64,000 nt of DNA from Pseudomonadota bacterium (GTDB taxonomy: Bacteria; Pseudomonadota; Gammaproteobacteria; Burkholderiales; Burkholderiaceae_C): positions 10,277-74,276 of the forward strand of contig JAKBBP010000009.1 of the NCBI GenBank assembly GCA_021808445.1, read 5' to 3'. This document shows, piece by piece, positions 2,477-50,237 of the stretch (positions are counted from its first letter, which is position 1; each line of letters opens with the position of its first letter). A program made the translations under genes and the position numbers. The notes under the pieces are model-generated. The model saw nothing but the letters and a program-made list of their open reading frames with translations, was not told the origin of the DNA and did not search any database.

Positions 2477-4366
2477 ATGAACCGTTACCCGCTGTGGAAG
2501 TACCTCGTGATGGCCGCCGTCGTGGTGGTCGGCATCGTGTATGCGCTGCCGAACCTGTTCGGCGAGGCCCCGGCCGTGCAGATCACCTCGGCGCACGCCG
2601 GGCACGACCAGCCCGACCAGGCGCTGCTGCAGCGCGGTGAGGCCGCGCTGGCCCAGGCCGGCATCCACGCCGACCGCGCAGCCATCGACGGCGCGACCCT
2701 GAACTACAGCTTCTCCGGCACCGACGTGCAGTTGCGCGCGCGCGAGGTGCTGGCGCATGCGCTGAACACCAACCCGCAGTCTCCCTCCTACATCGTCGCG
2801 GTCAACCTGCTCAGCCGCTCGCCCGCCTGGCTGACCGCGCTGCATGCCCACCCCATGTACCTCGGCCTGGACCTGCGCGGCGGCGTGCACTTCCTGCTGC
2901 AGGTGGACATGCAGGCGGCCCTGGAGAAAAAGCTGGATTCGATCGCCGGCGAGCTCAAGTCCTCGCTGCGCGACAAGGACGTGCGCTACAGCGAGCTCAA
3001 GCGCGTCGGCGACGCCGTGCAGATGCAGTTCCACGACCCCGAGATGTTCCAGGCCGCGCTTCCGGTGGTCCGGGCCAACGCGGGCAATGCCCTCATCGAC
3101 GCCGACGCCGCCGCCGGGACCATCGCGCTGCGCCTGAGCCCCGCGACCATCCAGCAGACCGAGGATTACGCGATCAAGCAGAACATCACCACGCTGCACA
3201 ACCGGATCAACGAACTCGGCGTGGCCGAGCCCGTGATCCAGCAGCAGGGCAGGGACCGCGTGGTGGTCGAACTTCCCGGCATCCAGGACACCGCCCGAGC
3301 CAAGGACATCCTCGGACGCACCGCCTCGTTGGAGGTCCGCATGGTGGACGACAGCCCGGCCGCGCTCAGCGCGCTGGCGGGCAAGGGGCCCGCGCCCGAG
3401 GGCGACCAGAAGCTCTACGACCGTTCCGGCAACGCGCTGATGGTCAAGAGCGACGTGCTGCTCACGGGACAGGAACTGACCGATGCGCAGCCGGGCTTCG
3501 ATCCTCAGACCAACCAGCCGGCGGTGTTCCTCACCCTGGATTCGCGTGGTTCGCGCATCTTCGCCGATCTCACGCGCGCCAACGTTGGCAAGCGCATCGC
3601 CATGGTGCTCATCGACCGCCACCAGGCCCAGGTGGTGACCGCCCCGGTGGTACGCAGCGAGATCGACGGCGGCCGCGTGCAGATCTCCGGCAGCATGACC
3701 GTGCCGGAGGCCAATGACATCGCGCTGCTGCTGCGCGCCGGCGCCCTGGCTGCGCCCATGCAGATCATCGAGGAGCGCACCATCGGCCCCAGCCTGGGAC
3801 GCCAGAACATCGCGCAGGGCTTCCACTCGGTGACCTGGGGCTTCCTGGCCATCGTCGCGTTCATGTGCGTGTACTACCTGCTGTTCGGCGCGGTCTCCTC
3901 GATCTCGCTGGCGGTGAACCTGCTGCTGCTGGTGGCGCTGCTGTCGATGCTCCAGGCCACGCTGACCCTGCCCGGCATCGCCGCCATGGCCCTGGCGCTG
4001 GGCATGGCCATCGATTCCAACGTGCTGATCAACGAGCGCATCCGCGAGGAGCTGCGCAACGGCGCCGGCGCGCAGGCGGCGATCGCCGCCGGCTACGCGC
4101 GCGCCTGGGCCACCATCCTGGACTCCAACGTCACCACGCTGATCGCCGGCCTGGCGCTGCTGGTGTTCGGCTCCGGCGCGGTGCGCGGCTTCGCCATCGT
4201 GCACGTCCTGGGCATCCTCACGTCGATGTTCTCGGCGGTGTTCTTCTCGCGTGGACTGGTCAACCTCTGGTACGGCCGACGCCGGCGCCTGCAGTCGGTG
4301 TCCATCGGCCAGGTGTGGAAGCCCGGCGCGACCCCGTCCGACAAGGCGCCCGCGGGCAAGTCCTGA
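2477..4366 (+). CDS. secD: Protein translocase subunit SecD
   Basis: LGLDLRGGVHFLLQVD, RINELGVAEP, IDSNVLINERIREE, TILDSNVTT. Confidence 0.97.
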   Translation: MNRYPLWKYLVMAAVVVVGIVYALPNLFGEAPAVQITSAHAGHDQPDQALLQRGEAALAQAGIHADRAAIDGATLNYSFSGTDVQLRAREVLAHALNTNPQSPSYIVAVNLLSRSPAWLTALHAHPMYLGLDLRGGVHFLLQVDMQAALEKKLDSIAGELKSSLRDKDVRYSELKRVGDAVQMQFHDPEMFQAALPVVRANAGNALIDADAAAGTIALRLSPATIQQTEDYAIKQNITTLHNRINELGVAEPVIQQQGRDRVVVELPGIQDTARAKDILGRTASLEVRMVDDSPAALSALAGKGPAPEGDQKLYDRSGNALMVKSDVLLTGQELTDAQPGFDPQTNQPAVFLTLDSRGSRIFADLTRANVGKRIAMVLIDRHQAQVVTAPVVRSEIDGGRVQISGSMTVPEANDIALLLRAGALAAPMQIIEERTIGPSLGRQNIAQGFHSVTWGFLAIVAFMCVYYLLFGAVSSISLAVNLLLLVALLSMLQATLTLPGIAAMALALGMAIDSNVLINERIREELRNGAGAQAAIAAGYARAWATILDSNVTTLIAGLALLVFGSGAVRGFAIVHVLGILTSMFSAVFFSRGLVNLWYGRRRRLQSVSIGQVWKPGATPSDKAPAGKS

Positions 4367-4403
4367 AGCCCGCGACCGTCCAGCCTTCGACCAGGAGATC
4401 CTG

Positions 4404-5357
4404 ATGGAGTTCTTCCGTATCCGCCGCGACATCCCGTTCATGCGCTATGCGCCGGTGCTGAACGTGATCTCGGCCCTGCTGTTCGTCGCCGCCGTGTTCT
4501 TCCTGTTCACGCGCGGATTGCATCTATCCATCGAATTCACCGGCGGGACGGTCATGGAGGTGCATTACCCCCACGCGGCCGACCTGGATACGGTGCGCGC
4601 GGTGCCCAGGCGCCTGGGCTACGGCGACGTGCAGGTACAGACCTTCGGCAACGCTCGCGACGTGGTGATCCGACTGCCACTGCGGGCCGGCGAGAGCAGC
4701 GTGGCGCAAAGCGACCGCGTGATGAGCGCCTTGAAGTCGGCCGATCCCCAGGCGCAGCTGGCACGCACCGAGTTCGTGGGGCCGCAGGTAGGTTCCGAGC
4801 TGGCCACCGACGGCCTCAAGGCCCTGGCCTTCGTGATCGCCGGCATCATGCTGTACCTGGCGCTGCGCTTCGAGTGGAAGTTTTCCGTGGCGGCCATCGT
4901 GGCCAACCTGCACGACGTGATCATCGTGCTGGGCTTCTTCGCCTTTTTCCAGTGGGAGTTCTCGCTGCCCGTGCTGGCGGCCGTGCTGGCGGTGCTGGGC
5001 TACTCGGTGAACGAGTCGGTGGTGATCTTCGACCGGGTGCGGGAGAACTTCCGAAAGTACCGCAAGTACACCACGGTGCACGTGATCGACAGCGCGATCA
5101 CCAACACCATCAGCCGCACCATCATCACCCACGGCGCGACCCTGGCGATGGCCTTCTCGATGTTCCTGTTCGGAGGCCCCGCCCTGCATTATTTCGCGCT
5201 GGCGCTGATCATCGGCATCTCCATGAGCATCTACAGCTCCGTGTTCGTCGCCGCCGCGATCGCCATGTGGCTGCGCGTCAAGCGCGAGGATCTGCTCAAG
5301 TCCGGCCCGGGGCGCCCGAAAAACCCCAACGACCCGAACGCCGGCGCGGTGGTCTGA
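4404..5357 (+). CDS. secF: Protein translocase subunit SecF
   Basis: LSIEFTGGT, VGPQVGSEL, GYSVNESVVIFDRVRE; AGGAG RBS before ATG 4404. Confidence 0.97.
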   Translation: MEFFRIRRDIPFMRYAPVLNVISALLFVAAVFFLFTRGLHLSIEFTGGTVMEVHYPHAADLDTVRAVPRRLGYGDVQVQTFGNARDVVIRLPLRAGESSVAQSDRVMSALKSADPQAQLARTEFVGPQVGSELATDGLKALAFVIAGIMLYLALRFEWKFSVAAIVANLHDVIIVLGFFAFFQWEFSLPVLAAVLAVLGYSVNESVVIFDRVRENFRKYRKYTTVHVIDSAITNTISRTIITHGATLAMAFSMFLFGGPALHYFALALIIGISMSIYSSVFVAAAIAMWLRVKREDLLKSGPGRPKNPNDPNAGAVV

Positions 5358-5367
5358 GCCCGCCCCC

Positions 5368-5389
5368 GCCCGCGGCCTGCGCCGCGGGC
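5368..5389 (+). terminator. GC-rich hairpin after secF (no U tract)
   Basis: GCCCGCGGC-ctgc-GCCGCGGGC just after the secF stop. Confidence 0.35.
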
Positions 5390-5401
5390 ACGGCGTGACC
5401 A

Positions 5402-5419
5402 CGTCACGCCGCCGTCACG
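5402..5419 (+). promoter_or_regulatory. 11-bp-period direct repeat, Pho-box/OmpR-family-like
   Basis: GTCACG at 5403 and 5414, followed by TTGACA at 5423. Confidence 0.4.
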
Positions 5420-5477
5420 AGATTGACACCTTTGCGTGCGAGCCTCGCGTCTTCCTTCCAGGACGCGAGCACCGCAC

Positions 5478-6191
5478 ATGCTTCCCACCGATCCTGCGCC
5501 CGGCCCTGCGGGCGCCGGCGAGCCGACCACCAAGCACTCCGTGCTCTATGTCGGCTTCGGCCACTCGGCCGCACGTCCGCTGGACAACTCGCAGGAAGCC
5601 CAGCCTGAAGCCGCCCTGCGGCAACTCGTCGACGGGAGTTCCTGGGCAGTCGTGCTGCGCTGCGCCGAACAGGCGCGCGCCGCCACCGACTGGATCATGC
5701 GCGTACGCCACCACCCCGCGTCCTCGCAGGCGGTGGTGCTGGCGCTGGTCGAGGATCCCGGCGGCCCGCTGGCCCTGCAGGCGCTGCGCGCCGGCGCCGA
5801 CGCCGTCGTCGGCCTGCGCTGCATGCCGGCGCTGCTGCAGGCCCAGCTGGCGCGGCTTCGCCAGCGCGTGGCGCATGAACCCGCGGGCCAGCTGAACGTG
5901 GCCCCCGACACCACGCTGGACGCGCCCACGCGGGAGTTGCGCTGCGGCGACGAATGCCAGGCCCTGCAACCCCAGCTGTTCCGCCTCCTGTGGGCGCTGT
6001 GCGAGCGGCCCGGGCGCGTGCTCAGCCCCGCCAGCCTGCGCGTGGCGCTGGACATCCCGGCACGCGCCGACGCCCAGGCGCTGCATACCGCGGTCGGGCG
6101 ACTGCGCCGGCTGCTGCGCCAGCACGGCCTGGACGCGCATCTGCAGACCCTGCACGGAAGCGGCTACCGCTGGACCGGCACGCCCGACTGA
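5478..6191 (+). CDS. Atypical OmpR-type regulator (degenerate receiver plus winged helix)
   Basis: C-terminal FRLLWALCERPGRVLS...LHTAVGRLRRLL...LQTLHGSGYR; receiver-like ALRAGADAVV without the acidic pocket; start 5478 or 5436. Confidence 0.75.
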   Translation: MLPTDPAPGPAGAGEPTTKHSVLYVGFGHSAARPLDNSQEAQPEAALRQLVDGSSWAVVLRCAEQARAATDWIMRVRHHPASSQAVVLALVEDPGGPLALQALRAGADAVVGLRCMPALLQAQLARLRQRVAHEPAGQLNVAPDTTLDAPTRELRCGDECQALQPQLFRLLWALCERPGRVLSPASLRVALDIPARADAQALHTAVGRLRRLLRQHGLDAHLQTLHGSGYRWTGTPD

Positions 6192-6258
6192 ACTCCCCGG
6201 GGTGCATTTCGCCGGGAAACATTCCCGAACAACTCCGACAGGCCCGGTGAGATTTCGG

Positions 6259-6277
6259 ACAGGTTGACGCAACCTGT
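6259..6277. promoter_or_regulatory. Perfect palindrome upstream of the TonB-dependent receptor
   Basis: ACAGGTTG-acg-CAACCTGT. Confidence 0.5.
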
Positions 6278-6385
6278 TCATCACGAGCGGCCGTTGCAAT
6301 AGCGTCCAAGGTTGCGAGCGTGAATGCGCGCATCGACGACCAGGGCCTGAGAGCCCCCCGAATTCCAACGCCATCCGGAGCTGTC

Positions 6386-8758
6386 ATGAATCACCGCACC
6401 CCACCGCCGGCCCTGCGCCGCAATCTGCTGTCCCACGCCGTGCTGCTGGCGCTGTGCGCCGCACCGGGCGTCGCCTGCGCACAGGCGGCAAGCACCGATC
6501 TGGGCACGGTGCAGGCCGGCGCACAGGCCGCCGGCGGCACCACGGCTGCGAAGACCAGCCAGGAACGAAAGATCAGCAAGAAGCAGGTGTTCAAGTCGGG
6601 GGTGTCCACCACCGTGCTGGACCGCCAGCAGATCCAGACCGCGGGCGCCTTCGGCGGTGCCGCGCAGGCGCTGCAGGTGGCGCCCGGCGTGGCCGTCAGC
6701 GGCTACGGCTCCACCGGCAGCACCAAGAACCAGATCAGCGTCAACGGCATCAAGCAGGGCTGGGGCGGATTCAGCGGCTCGCAGATCGACAACGGCTCGA
6801 TTTCCATGACCTTCGACGGGGTGCCCATGGCCAACCCCTCGACCGGTCTGTGGCAAAGCGACCTGGTGCCGCAGCTGGGCATGATCCAGGGCATCGGCGT
6901 GACCTACGGCCCCGGCGAACCCGCGGATCGCTGGTTCAACAACGTGGGCGGCCAGATCGCCTTCGTTCCGGTGCAGCCCACCGACAAGTTCGGCGGCACG
7001 GTCGGGGTGAGCGTGGGCAGCGACAGCGCGCGCAACCTCGACTTCGTGCTCAACACCGGCAGACACGACGGCTGGTCCACCGTGGTCGCCGGCGGCACCG
7101 GCTCGGCCGACAGCTACCGCACGGCCAGCGACGGCTTCAACAGCCACGGCAGCAACGAGGCCTTTTTCCTGAAGACCCGCAAGGACTTCCAGAACGGCAA
7201 TTTCTCGCTCGGCCTGTACAACGCGCGCAGCACCGCCTACCGGCCCTTCGCCGTGCCCACGCAGACCGTGCCCGGCCTGACCCTGGACGGCACCGCGGGC
7301 ACGCCCCTGTACAGCCAGCAGGCCTCGGGCTTCTACAGCACGATTCCCGGCTCGGTGTGGAACAAGAACGACACCAACGAGCTGCGCATCCTCTACGGCA
7401 AGCTCAACGTCGGGCTGGACGACAACGCGCGCCTGCACAACCTGATGTGGTACGAGCTGGAGAAGCGCATCCACGACCACTACAACAACTACGGCCTGAG
7501 CAATCCGGGCAACCTGTACGAGCACAACAACCCGCGCACCAGCAGCTACGGCGACAAGCTGTGGGTGGACGTGGCGCTGCCGCACAACCTGGTGTCGGTG
7601 GGCGGCTTCGTGCTCAAGAGCACCTACAACACACGCAACGCCTTCTACAACCCGGCCGACCTGGTGGGCACCTCGACCACGGTGTACGGCAGCCAGACCA
7701 CGCCCAACGCGCACTACCGCAGCGACTACTTCGACCAGACCGACCTGGCGCTGTTCGCGCAGGACAAGATCAGCCCGATCCGGCGCCTGGACATCACCCC
7801 GGGCATCCGTTTCATCAACTACGACACCGTGTACTCGCCGGCCGGGGCCTCGGACTTCCCGATCTCCTACCAGTACGCCCCCGGCAATGATCAGGGCAGT
7901 CAGCCCGGCTCGACCGCCAGCCATCACAAGATCGAGACCTCGATCAGCGCCAACTACCGCGCCCTGCCCTGGCTGGCCCTGTTCGGCAACTTCGCCCAGG
8001 CCTACAAGGAACCCCAGGTCGGCGGCGGCGGCGGCCTGTTCCAGAGCACCGCGCCCATCTACAACCTGGAAAAGAGCACGGACTACACCCTGGGCTTCAA
8101 GATGCACGTGCGTCGCGCCCAGTACCTGCACGACTTCCTGTTGTCGGTCTCGTACTACCACCTGCACTTCCAGAACCAGTACATCCCGCTGAGCGACGCC
8201 AACGGCAATTACATCGGCGACGCCAACGGGGATTCGACCTACCACGGCCTGAACCTGTCGCTGTCCGACGAGGTCGCCTACAACCTGGACGTGTTTGCCA
8301 ACGCCAACTTCGAGAAGGCGGTGTTCGACAACTACGTCACCGGGGGGACCAGCTACGCCGGCCTGCCGGTGTCGAACGTACCCGACAAGACCTTCACGGT
8401 CGGCGCCAACTACAAGGTCTACGGCGGTGGCGTGCTGTGGGTGCCCGGCATCAACTACCAGTACACCGGCGCGCAGTACATGTGGAGCGACCAGAGCAAC
8501 TCGCCCACCAACCAGAAGGCCCCCGCCTACGGGCTGTGGAACCTCACGCTGGACGGCACGGTGCCCATGCACGACGCCACCATCACCGACCTGAAGTTCC
8601 ACCTCGGGGTGCTCAACGCGACCGACAAGCAATACAACAACAGCGAGTTCATCAGCTTCCCCGGCGACTGGCTGGGCGGGAACACCACCGGCACCTATGT
8701 CCTGGGCATGCCGGGTGCCCCGCGCACCTTCTACGCCGGACTGAGCGCCGACTTCTAA
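6386..8758 (+). CDS. TonB-dependent outer-membrane receptor
   Basis: Signal peptide, plug region (AAQALQVAPGV...DGVPM), beta-barrel ending PGAPRTFYAGLSADF; adjacent exbBD-tonB; GGAG RBS before ATG 6386. Confidence 0.92.
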   Translation: MNHRTPPPALRRNLLSHAVLLALCAAPGVACAQAASTDLGTVQAGAQAAGGTTAAKTSQERKISKKQVFKSGVSTTVLDRQQIQTAGAFGGAAQALQVAPGVAVSGYGSTGSTKNQISVNGIKQGWGGFSGSQIDNGSISMTFDGVPMANPSTGLWQSDLVPQLGMIQGIGVTYGPGEPADRWFNNVGGQIAFVPVQPTDKFGGTVGVSVGSDSARNLDFVLNTGRHDGWSTVVAGGTGSADSYRTASDGFNSHGSNEAFFLKTRKDFQNGNFSLGLYNARSTAYRPFAVPTQTVPGLTLDGTAGTPLYSQQASGFYSTIPGSVWNKNDTNELRILYGKLNVGLDDNARLHNLMWYELEKRIHDHYNNYGLSNPGNLYEHNNPRTSSYGDKLWVDVALPHNLVSVGGFVLKSTYNTRNAFYNPADLVGTSTTVYGSQTTPNAHYRSDYFDQTDLALFAQDKISPIRRLDITPGIRFINYDTVYSPAGASDFPISYQYAPGNDQGSQPGSTASHHKIETSISANYRALPWLALFGNFAQAYKEPQVGGGGGLFQSTAPIYNLEKSTDYTLGFKMHVRRAQYLHDFLLSVSYYHLHFQNQYIPLSDANGNYIGDANGDSTYHGLNLSLSDEVAYNLDVFANANFEKAVFDNYVTGGTSYAGLPVSNVPDKTFTVGANYKVYGGGVLWVPGINYQYTGAQYMWSDQSNSPTNQKAPAYGLWNLTLDGTVPMHDATITDLKFHLGVLNATDKQYNNSEFISFPGDWLGGNTTGTYVLGMPGAPRTFYAGLSADF

Positions 8759-8840
8759 GCGCCCATGGGGCCGCGCGGCGGGCCGGTTGCGGCCCCGCTG
8801 GCGCGGCCCGAGTCCTTGAGAGCCCACAGGAGCACCGCTC

Positions 8841-9560
8841 ATGATCTCCCTTCAGACCATCACCGATGCCGCGCAGAAATCCGGCGGCATCCTCTACATC
8901 ATGGCGCTGCTGCTGCTGGTGGCGCTGGCCGTGGCCATCGAGCGCTTCTGGGCGCTCGGCCGCATGCAGTCCCAGTGCCTGCGCTGGGTGCGCGAACTCA
9001 AGGCCCACGGCCATGTGGACACCAGCCTGCTGCACGAGCGCCTGCAGGGAGATGCGAAATCTCCCGCCGCGCAAGTCGTGGCCGTGGCCTTGAGCCACGA
9101 CCTGGGAGACACGCTGGACCATTTCAGCGATCGCCTGGAGGAGGCGGTGATGGACCAGGCGCCCCAGGTCGACCGCGGCCTGTGGATGCTCGACACCATC
9201 GTCACCCTGGCGCCGCTGCTGGGCCTGCTGGGAACCATCGTGGGCATGTTCAACACCTTCCAGGCGCTGTCCCACCCGGCCGCCGCCACCCAGGCGGTCA
9301 CGGGCGGGGTGGGCGAGGCCCTGCTGGCCACCGCAGCGGGCCTGTTCATCGCGGTGCTGGGCCTGGTCGCGTTCAACGCCCTGCACCAACGCGTGCGCCT
9401 GGTCATGCACCAGCTCGAGCGCATCAAGCTGATGCTGTCCAACCGCATGTATCCCCATTACCGTGGCTCGCAGCAGGCCGCGCGGGAGGCGCGCGACGCG
9501 GCCATGCGCCGCGCCGGCGCATCCGCCCCGCCTCCCGTCGCCTCGCCGCTGCTGCAGTAA
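8841..9560 (+). CDS. exbB: ExbB/MotA/TolQ proton channel
   Basis: LDTIVTLAPLLGLLGTIVGM...GVGEALLATAAGL. Confidence 0.92.
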   Translation: MISLQTITDAAQKSGGILYIMALLLLVALAVAIERFWALGRMQSQCLRWVRELKAHGHVDTSLLHERLQGDAKSPAAQVVAVALSHDLGDTLDHFSDRLEEAVMDQAPQVDRGLWMLDTIVTLAPLLGLLGTIVGMFNTFQALSHPAAATQAVTGGVGEALLATAAGLFIAVLGLVAFNALHQRVRLVMHQLERIKLMLSNRMYPHYRGSQQAAREARDAAMRRAGASAPPPVASPLLQ

Positions 9561-47637: not shown

Positions 47638-47820
47638 ATGCAATCGGCGTGGACCAGCTTGCTCACCACCGATTACGGGTGGATGACCGTGGCCGTATTC
47701 GTGTTCATGCTCGGCATGGGCGTGTTTTTCGTCCTGTTCTTCCGGCGCAGGATTCGCGACGAGGAAGCGGGAGCGCGCGCCAGGAACTCCGAGGCCTTGA
47801 AACAACACCGCCCGGGCTGA
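47638..47820 (+). CDS. DUF3149-like small membrane protein
   Basis: LLTTDYGWMTVAVFVFMLGMGVFF; AGGAG RBS. Confidence 0.75.
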   Translation: MQSAWTSLLTTDYGWMTVAVFVFMLGMGVFFVLFFRRRIRDEEAGARARNSEALKQHRPG

Positions 47821-47867
47821 GCCGGGCGGCGAGAATCGGACGGCGAGAATCGGGCGGTCGGGGGAAC

Positions 47868-48143
47868 TCAGGCCGCTCGAGGGCCCTGCGAGGAGGCTTC
47901 GGCCACCCAGCGCTCGCCCATGACCGAGCCCAGGTAGTCGACCAGCAGCGGATGCTGCTGCATGGGCACGTCGGTCTCGACCGCGTAGATGGCGATGCCG
48001 TACTCGCCATGCCGGCGTGCATGCTCGCTGCGCGCCAGGCCCTGCACGGACTCCAGGCTGCCCACGGCGACCACGTAACTGTGACGCTCGGGTTCCCCAT
48101 GCTCGAAGGCCTGGGCCAGGTAGAGATCTCGCGTCGCGTTCAT
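47868..48143 (-). CDS. Hypothetical protein (91 aa)
   Basis: GGAG RBS; balanced amino-acid composition unlike shadow ORFs. Confidence 0.6.
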   Translation of the reverse strand: MNATRDLYLAQAFEHGEPERHSYVVAVGSLESVQGLARSEHARRHGEYGIAIYAVETDVPMQQHPLLVDYLGSVMGERWVAEASSQGPRAA

Positions 48144-48215: not shown

Positions 48216-49706
48216 TCAGATGGCCGTCCACAGGTACACGTACAGACTGTTGTTGGCACTGGCCCCTTGCGCGGAACCGGCGAACTTGTTGTAGGTCGTG
48301 TACTGCACCCCCACGCGAAGGTTCTTCTCCGGATCCACCCAGCTCTTGCCGAAGGGGTTCCAGTCCAGCTCCCAGGTCACGCCCGAAGTCTGCGGGCTGG
48401 AGGCGGGGTTGTAAAGGTAGGGGTCGTTGCTTCCCGTGGTGTTGAAGAACTGGATGGTCGCGCCATAGGTGTTCTGGTACCAGTAGGCCGCGTTCACGTT
48501 CATCGCGTTGAGCGTGTCACTGGAGTTCGACGTCGCCCCGGTCAGGTAGCTCTGCGTGAAACTCTGGCGCTCGTGGATGTACAGGCCGTTGACCGACCAG
48601 ATCCCGTTTTCACCAAAGTACTGGTAGCTGGCGTCCAGACCGATGTCGCGGTAGGTCTCGTCGGGCCCGTTGCCGGCCAGGGTGGGATCGAGGTTGTCGG
48701 CCACCTGGGAGTTCGGGTTCTGCGGGTTCAGCTTGGTCTGCATTCCCAGCACGCCGAACTCATAGTTGTTCGCGCCGATGGTGTTGGAGTAATTGAAGCG
48801 CAAGTAAGGGGCATAGCCCGAGACCACCCCGCCGCCGGCGCTCAGATCCGCGTTGGCCCCACCGGCGCTGTTGATCGGGTCGGCCGGGCCGCCAGCGTGC
48901 AGCTGGTTACCCCACCAGTTGGACATCTGGTGATACAGACCCAGCTCTGCGTACCAGTGGTTGTCCACCAGGGTGTAGAAGGATGCGCCGATCACGTGTT
49001 CGCCCAGGTCCTCGATGACCGGGGTCTGGCCATAGCCCGAGCCGAAGGGGCTGGTCATGAAGCCGAACTGCCAGGCCGGCACGGTGTTCCATACGTCGGA
49101 CACGGTCGGGTTGTTGTTCAGCGACACCCCGAAGATGCCGGTGGTGGACCCGATCTTGTAGGTGTTGGCGAAACGCAGGTCGGAGTTGTCCCAGGCGAGG
49201 TTCTGCGAACCCGGATCCGAGTAGGTGGCCTGGGCCAGTACGCCCACATGGTCGCTCAGGCGGCCCGCCAGGAACACGGAGGCCTGTTGCAGCGCGGTGA
49301 CGTTGTCGTTGGCGTTGAAGCCGACCGGCGGGGCGCTGTTGTCGCCGGTGGTGTGGGTGTAGGAAGCCACCAGCATCGCCGACAGGGGAATGTCATGCTT
49401 GGCGCTGCCGCCCTTCAGGGTGTAGCCCCCGAGCTTGAAGGCCCGGCCGAAGGGCGTGAGCTGCGGGCCGAAGCCCCCGACGTGGCAGGCCACGCAATCC
49501 TGTCCGGTCTGGCGTGCGAAGGCGGGGACCGCATGGGCTGGCGAGGCCGTCAGGCCGATGAAGGCCAGGACGCCCAGCCCCTGCAGCAGGCCGCGCGCGC
49601 GGGCCAGTGAGCGGGCCAGCGGGCGAGCGCAAGAGCGATGGTCGGATGGGTCGAGCGGTCCGCCGTTCGACGGCCGCCGGAAGGCAGGTGCGAGTCTGTT
49701 TGTCAT
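48216..49706 (-). CDS. cyc2: Cyc2-like cytochrome c-porin fusion
   Basis: Signal peptide then VPAFARQTGQDCVACH...PQLTPFGRAFKLGGY; single CxxCH; beta-barrel C-terminus LYVYLWTAI. Confidence 0.85.
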   Translation of the reverse strand: MTNRLAPAFRRPSNGGPLDPSDHRSCARPLARSLARARGLLQGLGVLAFIGLTASPAHAVPAFARQTGQDCVACHVGGFGPQLTPFGRAFKLGGYTLKGGSAKHDIPLSAMLVASYTHTTGDNSAPPVGFNANDNVTALQQASVFLAGRLSDHVGVLAQATYSDPGSQNLAWDNSDLRFANTYKIGSTTGIFGVSLNNNPTVSDVWNTVPAWQFGFMTSPFGSGYGQTPVIEDLGEHVIGASFYTLVDNHWYAELGLYHQMSNWWGNQLHAGGPADPINSAGGANADLSAGGGVVSGYAPYLRFNYSNTIGANNYEFGVLGMQTKLNPQNPNSQVADNLDPTLAGNGPDETYRDIGLDASYQYFGENGIWSVNGLYIHERQSFTQSYLTGATSNSSDTLNAMNVNAAYWYQNTYGATIQFFNTTGSNDPYLYNPASSPQTSGVTWELDWNPFGKSWVDPEKNLRVGVQYTTYNKFAGSAQGASANNSLYVYLWTAI

Positions 49707-49753
49707 GATGGCCCCCTCTGGGCACGAGCTGGGGAAAACCCCCTTTGCAACTC

Positions 49754-49796
49754 ATGCTAGGGAACCACCTGGGGTCCGGCGCTTGACCGACATCAA
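49754..49796 (-). promoter_or_regulatory. FNR-type class II promoter of cyc2-like gene
   Basis: Minus strand TTGAT-gtcg-GTCAA (49796-49783) and -10 TAGCAT (49759-49754). Confidence 0.65.
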
Positions 49797-49820: not shown

Positions 49821-50237
49821 TTACAAGCCGGCCCAGCGCGTGATCTCTCGTGCGGGCACCACGCCGCTATGACGCCGGATTTCCTGTCCGTTGCGAAAAA
49901 GCAGCAAGGTGGGGATGCTGCGGATCCGGTGGCGCACCGAAGCCTGGGGGTTGTCGTCCGAATTCACCTTGGCCAGCACGGCGCGGCCCTGCAGCTGTTG
50001 CGCAGCCTGCTCGAACTGCGGCGCCATCATGCGGCAGGGCCCGCACCACGGAGCCCAGAAATCGACCAGCAGGGGCAAGTCGCTGCGCGCGACGAAGCGT
50101 TCGAAGTCGGCGTCGCCCAGTTGCAGGGGCGCGGGGCCGAACAGGGCCTGGTGGCAGCTTCCGCATTGCGGATGCTGCTGCAGGCGTTCCTCGGGCACAC
50201 GGTTGATGGCCGAGCAATGAGGGCAGACGACATGCAT
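49821..50237 (-). CDS. trxC: Thioredoxin 2
   Basis: Zn-binding CPHC/CGSC plus WCGPC. Confidence 0.95.
   Translation of the reverse strand: MHVVCPHCSAINRVPEERLQQHPQCGSCHQALFGPAPLQLGDADFERFVARSDLPLLVDFWAPWCGPCRMMAPQFEQAAQQLQGRAVLAKVNSDDNPQASVRHRIRSIPTLLLFRNGQEIRRHSGVVPAREITRWAGL

Follow-up and report, generated by a model that had tools for sequence, protein, structure and literature searches.

The window analysed here is a stretch of 64,000 nucleotides from the metagenome-assembled genome (MAG) of a Pseudomonadota bacterium (GenBank assembly GCA_021808445.1, contig JAKBBP010000009.1, positions 10,277 to 74,276). A gene on its reverse strand, cyc2, raises the question of whether it encodes a genuine Cyc2, the fused cytochrome-porin of the outer membrane, and whether that protein would take electrons from Fe(II). 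Our answer is that the product of this open reading frame (ORF) truly belongs to the Cyc2 family, falls in its Acidithiobacillus-type cluster and is orthologous to the Cyc2 of Thiomonas sp. FB-6; for this protein we propose jointly a mechanism of Fe(II) oxidation and control by low oxygen; we give this combined reading a probability of about 0.6.

Family membership and architecture of the cyc2 product

In the ORF listing of the window the cyc2 frame is intact, begins with ATG and encodes 496 amino acids. The features of the gene and its product are the following.

48216..49706, reverse strand: cyc2, fused monohaem cytochrome-porin (Cyc2 family, Cluster 2 type), 496 amino acids, from the ORF, homology and tree placement
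49530..49706, reverse strand: predicted signal peptide, residues 1-59, from sequence inspection, the AlphaFold2 helix 29-53 and the aligned signal peptides of relatives
49506..49532, reverse strand: AXPXFARQT motif, A59-T67, the Cyc2-specific consensus defined in PMC8406198
49482..49496, reverse strand: CVACH, single c-type haem attachment site, C71-H75, from invariance in the family alignment
49458..49466, reverse strand: PQL, the PXL motif, P81-L83, from spacing comparison with relatives
48222..49385, reverse strand: beta-barrel porin domain, 16 strands, residues 108-495, from AlphaFold2 secondary structure and Foldseek

An earlier note, made from the letters of this DNA alone, had described the ORF as a Cyc2-like protein with a single N-terminal haem motif and a porin-like barrel. 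That description stands: its coordinates are exactly those of the ORF, CXXCH occurs once in the whole protein (C71-H75, both strings quoted in that note being found within ...SPAHAVPAFARQTGQDCVACHVGGFGPQLTPFGRAFKLGGY...), and a 16-strand barrel is modelled after it. Keffer et al. (2021) recognise Cyc2 by a signal peptide, one CXXCH, AXPXFAR[Q/K][T/Y] before the haem, PXL four residues after CXXCH, at least 365 residues with a 16-strand porin, and a BLASTP E value of at most 1e-5 to a known Cyc2 (PMC8406198). The N-terminus of the window protein reads ...LLQGLGVLAFIGLTASPAHA before and VPAFARQTGQDCVACHVGGFGPQLTPFGRAFKLGGY after the predicted cleavage, and by inspection contains a signal peptide whose n-region is long and charged, followed by the hydrophobic core LLQGLGVLAFIGLTA and a cleavage site between AHA and V, the core being also a helix in the AlphaFold2 model. 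The motif A59-VPAFARQ-T67 stands upstream of CXXCH, which itself lies 11 residues past the predicted cleavage site, and the whole cytochrome domain, with its one CXXCH and the family motifs, is about 45 residues long. PXL is present with a variation, since the proline of PQL is the sixth residue after the haem histidine, not the fourth; histidine and proline are separated by five residues in a subclade of 30 rows, the window protein among them, and by three in most other types, the Acidithiobacillus clade included, so that PQL is two residues farther from the haem than the PXL of Acidithiobacillus Cyc2, where these two extra residues are absent. A59, P61, Q66 and T67 are invariant in the alignment of relatives, and 82 diverse family members all have C71, C74 and H75.

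The alignment of the same 82 relatives was the input for an AlphaFold2 model of the protein (mean predicted local distance difference test score, pLDDT, 85.4; predicted template modelling score, pTM, 0.82), in which a signal helix (29-53) is followed by a small helical domain around the haem site (62-92) and by 16 strands (108-495); the barrel loops at 274-291 and about 330-349 are long and of low confidence. The best Foldseek matches in the PDB are the 16-stranded general porins OmpT, OmpF, OmpU and Omp32 (E about 3e-9, template modelling score on the target 0.54-0.59). The porin-like barrel of the earlier note is confirmed by this model. General and phosphate-selective porins (OmpF, OmpT, Omp32; OprO/OprP, the latter pair the template for Cyc2 in PMC8406198) share the barrel fold but have no haem domain, are 9-14% identical to the window protein and give no sequence-level match from the PDB. 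One could argue from this fold that the protein is essentially a diffusion porin whose haem domain is a structural plug or a relic that transfers no electrons, the more so as the gene lies among housekeeping envelope genes (kdsD, kdsC, lptC) in the lineage of the window. We consider this very unlikely, because the invariance of C71, C74 and H75 in the 82 members and the near-invariance of AXPXFARQT indicate selection on haem binding.

Sequence searches with the protein against Pfam, NCBIfam and the PDB gave no match, because they contain no Cyc2 model or solved structure; an exhaustive HMMER search found 2454 cluster representatives at E≤1e-3, so the Cyc2 resemblance is not a chance one. By BLASTP the protein is 30-32% identical over its full length to members of the Acidithiobacillus/Acidiferrobacter Cyc2 clade (E 1e-34 to 1e-50), with which it shares the spacing from AXPXFARQT to CXXCH; the best named match is a 485-amino-acid Acidithiobacillus Cyc2 with His47 (32% identity, E 3e-50), and the E value to the FB-6 Cyc2 is 0. 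The Acidithiobacillus anchor was obtained by running the family profile over 400 sampled genomes of the class, choosing one locus, L120, by its gene context, and searching for named homologs. The L120 Cyc2 shares 87% identity with a protein that bears the name "cytochrome C [Acidithiobacillus ferrooxidans]", and its wider clade carries the names Acidithiobacillus and Acidiferrobacter. The 485-amino-acid members of this clade have their haem histidine at position 47, as does A. ferrooxidans Cyc2 (2026 review, PMC13741234), and from the source names, the length and His47 we infer that the 485-amino-acid anchor is the assayed A. ferrooxidans protein.

An 89-row tree (IQ-TREE quick search, SH-aLRT support, midpoint root, with a tool flag that long branches meet) contains a 64-row clade (SH-aLRT 99, stem 1.57) that unites the Acidithiobacillus clade and the 48-row clade of the window protein. 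Other Cyc2 types that were recovered, their cluster numbers not matched by name, fall outside this clade on long branches, and many of them are encoded beside extra cytochrome c genes; those with FARKY...CxxCH, CxxCHFQ... and the like match the window-family profile only in their N-terminal ~130 residues (E 1e-11 to 1e-28). The window protein is thus monophyletic with A. ferrooxidans Cyc2 to the exclusion of the other types, which is the position of Cluster 2 of the literature; this call uses the tree with its named Acidithiobacillus anchor in place of FeGenie hidden Markov models. In Fig. S7 of PMC8406198 the FB-6 ortholog is likewise grouped with A. ferrooxidans, Ferrovum, GJ-E10 and Dechloromonas. 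The earlier assignment to the Cyc2 family, for which a place outside Cyc2 clusters 1-3 had been named as the outcome that would speak against it, is therefore upheld by the sequence and fold features as well as by the tree. The A. ferrooxidans protein, a biochemically verified Fe(II) oxidase of Cluster 2 from the rus operon, has the same architecture as that of the window, and the Cluster 1 proteins of Mariprofundus PV-1, Gallionellaceae and Chlorobium, also fusions of a monohaem cytochrome and a 16-strand porin, share AXPXFAR with it.

The FB-6 ortholog and the distribution of cyc2

The window Cyc2 is 86% identical over 464 residues to WP_018914220.1 of Thiomonas sp. FB-6 (84% to P0002 of GCA_000377645.1, the FB-6 assembly) and 93% identical to proteins of two MAGs. 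Exact sequence matches of the proteins encoded beside cyc2 in GCA_000377645.1 assign that assembly to Thiomonas sp. FB-6, and on this result a thermophilic Caldimonas- or Tepidimonas-like organism was rejected as the source of the window. The N-terminal motif block and the loop insertions of the FB-6 protein are identical to those of the window protein, except that the window loop at 333-338 is longer by 6 residues. Both organisms belong to the same GTDB genus and share the gene order kdsD-kdsC-lptC-SDR-CMD-trxC-cyc2-91-amino-acid ORF-DUF3149-MocR-aminotransferase. FB-6 is one of two Thiomonas isolates that are reported to oxidise Fe(II) micro-aerobically at pH 5.5 and to carry a Cyc2-like gene and mtoABD (PMC5566968), and the identities tabulated in Fig. 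S7 of PMC8406198 include its Cyc2, with 29.6% to A. ferrooxidans Cyc2. The window gene is therefore not new, being an ortholog of a Cyc2 already catalogued by He et al. 2017 (PMC5566968) and Keffer et al. 2021 (Fig. S7). An independent study ties, in a similarity network, Acidithiobacillus Cyc2 to a dense cluster of Rhodanobacteraceae and Burkholderiales (PMC10654088).

The two orthologs differ in their annotated starts, the RefSeq start of FB-6 being an internal methionine (459 amino acids). The window protein has an arginine at the same position and must therefore begin at the upstream ATG, which is preceded at a distance of 6 nucleotides by the Shine-Dalgarno sequence GAGGGGG (49718-49712) that is kept in relatives; this ATG is probably the true start in both genes. 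A later start of the window gene was ruled out by the same Shine-Dalgarno conservation and by the lack of any in-frame ATG, GTG or TTG between the annotated start and the hydrophobic core. As no alternative start precedes the core, the n-region of the signal peptide (residues 1-40, 49587-49706) is unusually long, at about 40 residues. An RR pair at residues 10-11 was considered as a Tat signal. It lies about 30 residues ahead of the hydrophobic core, and c-type cytochromes mature after Sec export; for both reasons the Tat reading was dropped, and the predicted signal is of Sec type.

The gene is single-copy in the genome of the window and is found in 25 of the 28 other species of the same GTDB genus, which places cyc2 in the core gene set of the genus. 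Five of these (G015, G016, G021, G023 and G026) have two matches each; in G021 and G026 the two copies differ clearly in profile score (about 1e-162 to 1e-167 versus 1e-140), which suggests that two Cyc2 lineages coexist within the genus. In sister genera of the family cyc2 is rare (1 of 8), and 64 of the 400 sampled genomes of the class have a Cyc2-family member, the named carriers being Rhodanobacter, Dyella, Frateuria, Zoogloea, Pelomonas and sphingomonads. A related-locus search with a 15-sequence alignment, of which the best 80 loci were considered, had no classical iron oxidisers among those 80. In another family of the class a Cyc2-family gene (G236:C6:511398-512694) contains several stop codons and is a pseudogene.

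Proposed low-oxygen control and route of electrons

Two elements lie between cyc2 and its upstream neighbour.

49783..49796, reverse strand: FNR/Anr-type box TTGATGTCGGTCAA, one mismatch to TTGAT-N4-ATCAA, centre 49789.5, from the sequence and enrichment across loci
49754..49759, reverse strand: -10-like hexamer TAGCAT, 23 nucleotides 3' of the FNR-type box, from conservation

Boxes with at most one mismatch to TTGAT-N4-ATCAA were counted in the region 100-420 nucleotides 5' of the haem codons of 77 distinct cyc2-like loci (among L001-L099). Such a box is present in 25 of the 77, at a density of 1.1e-3 per base pair versus 3.8e-5 per base pair in the rest of the same loci, an approximately 29-fold enrichment. 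The loci that carry it include several Thiomonas lineages, Rhodanobacter, Frateuria, Oleiagrimonas, Undibacterium and others, and their half-sites are conserved while the spacers are variable. The whole 3.38-Mb genome has 39 sites with at most one mismatch, and an Anr/FNR-like regulator with a C-x2-C-x5-C cluster and an ETVSR helix is encoded beside the cco genes (C31:19130-19930). TAGCAT is kept unchanged upstream of five orthologs, the proteins being 62-93% identical to that of the window; a generic sigma-70 scan called no promoter at this region of cyc2. The box suggests that cyc2 is induced at low oxygen. Control of an iron-oxidation operon by an FNR-family protein has a precedent in FixK and pioABC (PMC3050613), and among the 12 papers listed by a literature search on this subject none mentions an FNR site at cyc2 in its title or abstract.

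The stretch that separates the -10-like hexamer from the start codon contains a block, TAGCATGA-TT-CA-GGGG...TT-C-TCC (49707-49760), that is nearly invariant and is kept even where the proteins of relatives are only 62% identical; it could be a 5' leader.

The earlier note had also remarked that no cyc1, rusticyanin or oxidase genes adjoin cyc2, and this proved correct. No cyc1, rusticyanin (cupredoxin), cytochrome or oxidase gene is found near cyc2 on its contig (C35), on which the only other CXXCH ORFs to pass a coding filter are TrxC, with its zinc ribbon, and a TetR-like protein outside the window; cyc2 stands alone in all five related genomes inspected for gene context as well. The rus-operon arrangement, in which cyc2 accompanies cyc1, rusticyanin and aa3 oxidase genes, is thus absent both here and in the relatives, whereas in Acidithiobacillus cyc2 is accompanied by cyc1, cox and rus or, as at L120, by cyc1-cycA-sdrA-petABC. 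The L120 cluster (G453:C2:537000-555000, 3022-9527, reverse strand) is a contiguous cyc2-cyc1-cycA-sdrA-petA-petB-petC and puts the outer-membrane oxidase directly beside the "uphill" bc1 genes.

The MAG is 92% complete, so that absences from it stay unproven. Outside the window it encodes three small monohaem cytochromes (G000:C62:19444-20007, C33:91511-91966 and C106:54673-55530), which are candidate periplasmic partners. It also has ccoO, ccoP, cytochrome c1, an aa3-type CoxA motif and SoxAX, together with a TsdA-like dihaem cytochrome, cytochrome c', a cytochrome c peroxidase and an octahaem cytochrome of the Otr family. RuBisCO was not found in the MAG. MtoAB/PioAB also serves to bring electrons from Fe(II) outside the cell through the outer membrane, but it does so with two proteins, the decahaem cytochrome lying within a barrel of about 26 strands (PMC10654088), where the window has one monohaem fusion. 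No decahaem periplasmic cytochrome with a 26-strand porin is found in the MAG, and a search for a decahaem MtoA found none; in this the MAG differs from FB-6, reported with mtoABD (PMC5566968). The Otr-family protein, outside the window at G000:C79:21001-22968, has 605 amino acids, eight haems (octahaem tetrathionate-reductase family, TIGR04315, E 5e-163) and a C-terminal membrane helix, and is the only ORF of the MAG with at least three CXXCH.

We propose that Cyc2 would be exported and its haem attached by the Ccm system, that the barrel would insert into the outer membrane and carry the small haem domain at its periplasmic mouth or within it, and that dissolved Fe2+ would be oxidised at this haem. 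A monohaem c-type cytochrome, either soluble or anchored, would accept the electron and hand it to the cbb3 or aa3 oxidase, and FNR/Anr-type induction would take place at low oxygen, where Fe(II) persists. Since the MAG lacks RuBisCO, Fe(II) oxidation would be a mixotrophic energy supplement or a means of iron detoxification, not a basis of autotrophic growth; A. ferrooxidans, an acidophilic autotroph, contrasts in this with the MAG and with the host genus, of which FB-6 grows at about pH 5.5. Each step beyond a haem-binding outer-membrane barrel is a deduction. The earlier supposition that electrons from Fe(II) are taken up by way of some other periplasmic partner is plausible, because the nearest cultured relative, FB-6, oxidises Fe(II); the downstream electron path is guesswork, because the 92%-complete MAG yielded neither a cyc1-like dihaem c4 nor rusticyanin nor MtoAB.

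That last finding also weighs against the proposal, as do several others. Fe(II) oxidation by the window protein, as by any Thiomonas Cyc2, is a prediction; three Cyc2 proteins in all have been assayed, and most of Clusters 2 and 3 is unverified according to the authors of PMC8406198. Members of the subclade are widely found in heterotrophs (Rhodanobacter, Dyella, Zoogloea, Pelomonas, sphingomonads) that are not known as iron oxidisers, and its two-residue insertion between the haem histidine and PXL is absent from verified Cyc2 proteins. In other iron oxidisers cyc2 expression does not correlate with iron oxidation (PMC12442390). As to the regulation, the genome has no perfect FNR box anywhere, no box was found near cco, and the box of the FB-6 ortholog has two mismatches where that of the window has one.

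The same facts have led us to consider that the protein, a Cyc2-family member all the same, serves as a low-oxygen extracellular redox conduit or as a sensor and not in energy-yielding Fe(II) oxidation; electron export to Fe(III) or humics when oxygen is gone, Fe(II) sensing, and detoxification of surface Fe(II) or reactive oxygen species are possible roles of this kind. It would fit the FNR-type boxes 5' of subclade genes in many heterotrophs and denitrifiers, the frequency of the subclade in organisms not known as iron oxidisers, the lack of a dedicated periplasmic partner gene adjoining cyc2 and the lack of RuBisCO in the MAG, and a sensor role has been proposed for a constitutive Cyc2 of Gallionellaceae (PMC12442390). 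Low-oxygen induction, however, is equally compatible with micro-aerobic iron oxidation; FB-6, the nearest isolate, does oxidise Fe(II), as do all three Cyc2 proteins assayed to date (PMC8406198); and the measured Cyc2 potential of +208 mV (PV-1) fits electron uptake from Fe2+ better than export to ferric minerals. A conduit or sensor role of this sort seems to us doubtful, and we retain Fe(II) oxidation under low-oxygen control as the preferred reading.

Neighbouring genes and the place of this Cyc2 branch

The neighbours of cyc2 are trxC, a 91-amino-acid ORF, DUF3149, a MocR-type regulator and an aminotransferase. The features next to it are:

49821..50237, reverse strand: trxC (thioredoxin 2), upstream neighbour with a separate promoter region, from NCBIfam NF008229 (E 1.4e-42) and conserved synteny
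47868..48143, reverse strand: 91-amino-acid ORF without a signal peptide, 72 nucleotides 3' of cyc2, in conserved position
47806..47831, reverse strand: terminator-like GC-rich hairpin and T-rich tail, 3' of the 91-amino-acid ORF

The trxC start at 50237 is deduced from homologues of 138 amino acids, the mechanical TTG ORF reaching to 50285 (154 amino acids). The 91-amino-acid ORF directly follows cyc2 both in the lineage of the window and in classical Thiomonas species, despite differences in the other neighbours, and its family is confined to this GTDB genus (18 of 29 genomes including that of the window, none of 32 other genera). No terminator-like hairpin lies between the two genes, the only one being past the 91-amino-acid ORF, and they are probably co-transcribed; in our proposal Cyc2 would thus be made together with this cytoplasmic protein. 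Searches with the ORF product against Pfam, NCBIfam and PDB folds gave no significant match; its model is moderate (pLDDT 74), and the best fold is RuBisCO small-subunit-like at a non-significant E of 0.1. Five genomes have extra paralogs elsewhere, among them three equally scored matches in one genome, each within a 253-amino-acid open frame.

A broader idea, which we put forward tentatively, is that the heterotroph-type branch of Cluster 2 (Thiomonas, Rhodanobacteraceae and allies, with the two-residue insertion) belongs to an FNR/Anr low-oxygen regulon and may be a general micro-oxic or anoxic extracellular conduit, possibly bidirectional, not a dedicated lithotrophic iron oxidase, and that in Thiomonas it has a genus-restricted 91-amino-acid cytoplasmic partner of the same operon. 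The window adds one more Thiomonas genome with cyc2 and supports Cyc2 as a core trait of the genus. The box conserved across Thiomonas and Rhodanobacteraceae predicts low-oxygen induction of cyc2. The wider question that the Cyc2 literature poses, whether the numerous Cluster 2 homologs of heterotrophs really oxidise iron, is made more testable by this FNR-type box and by the culturable FB-6, which has the same locus and in which genetics are feasible.

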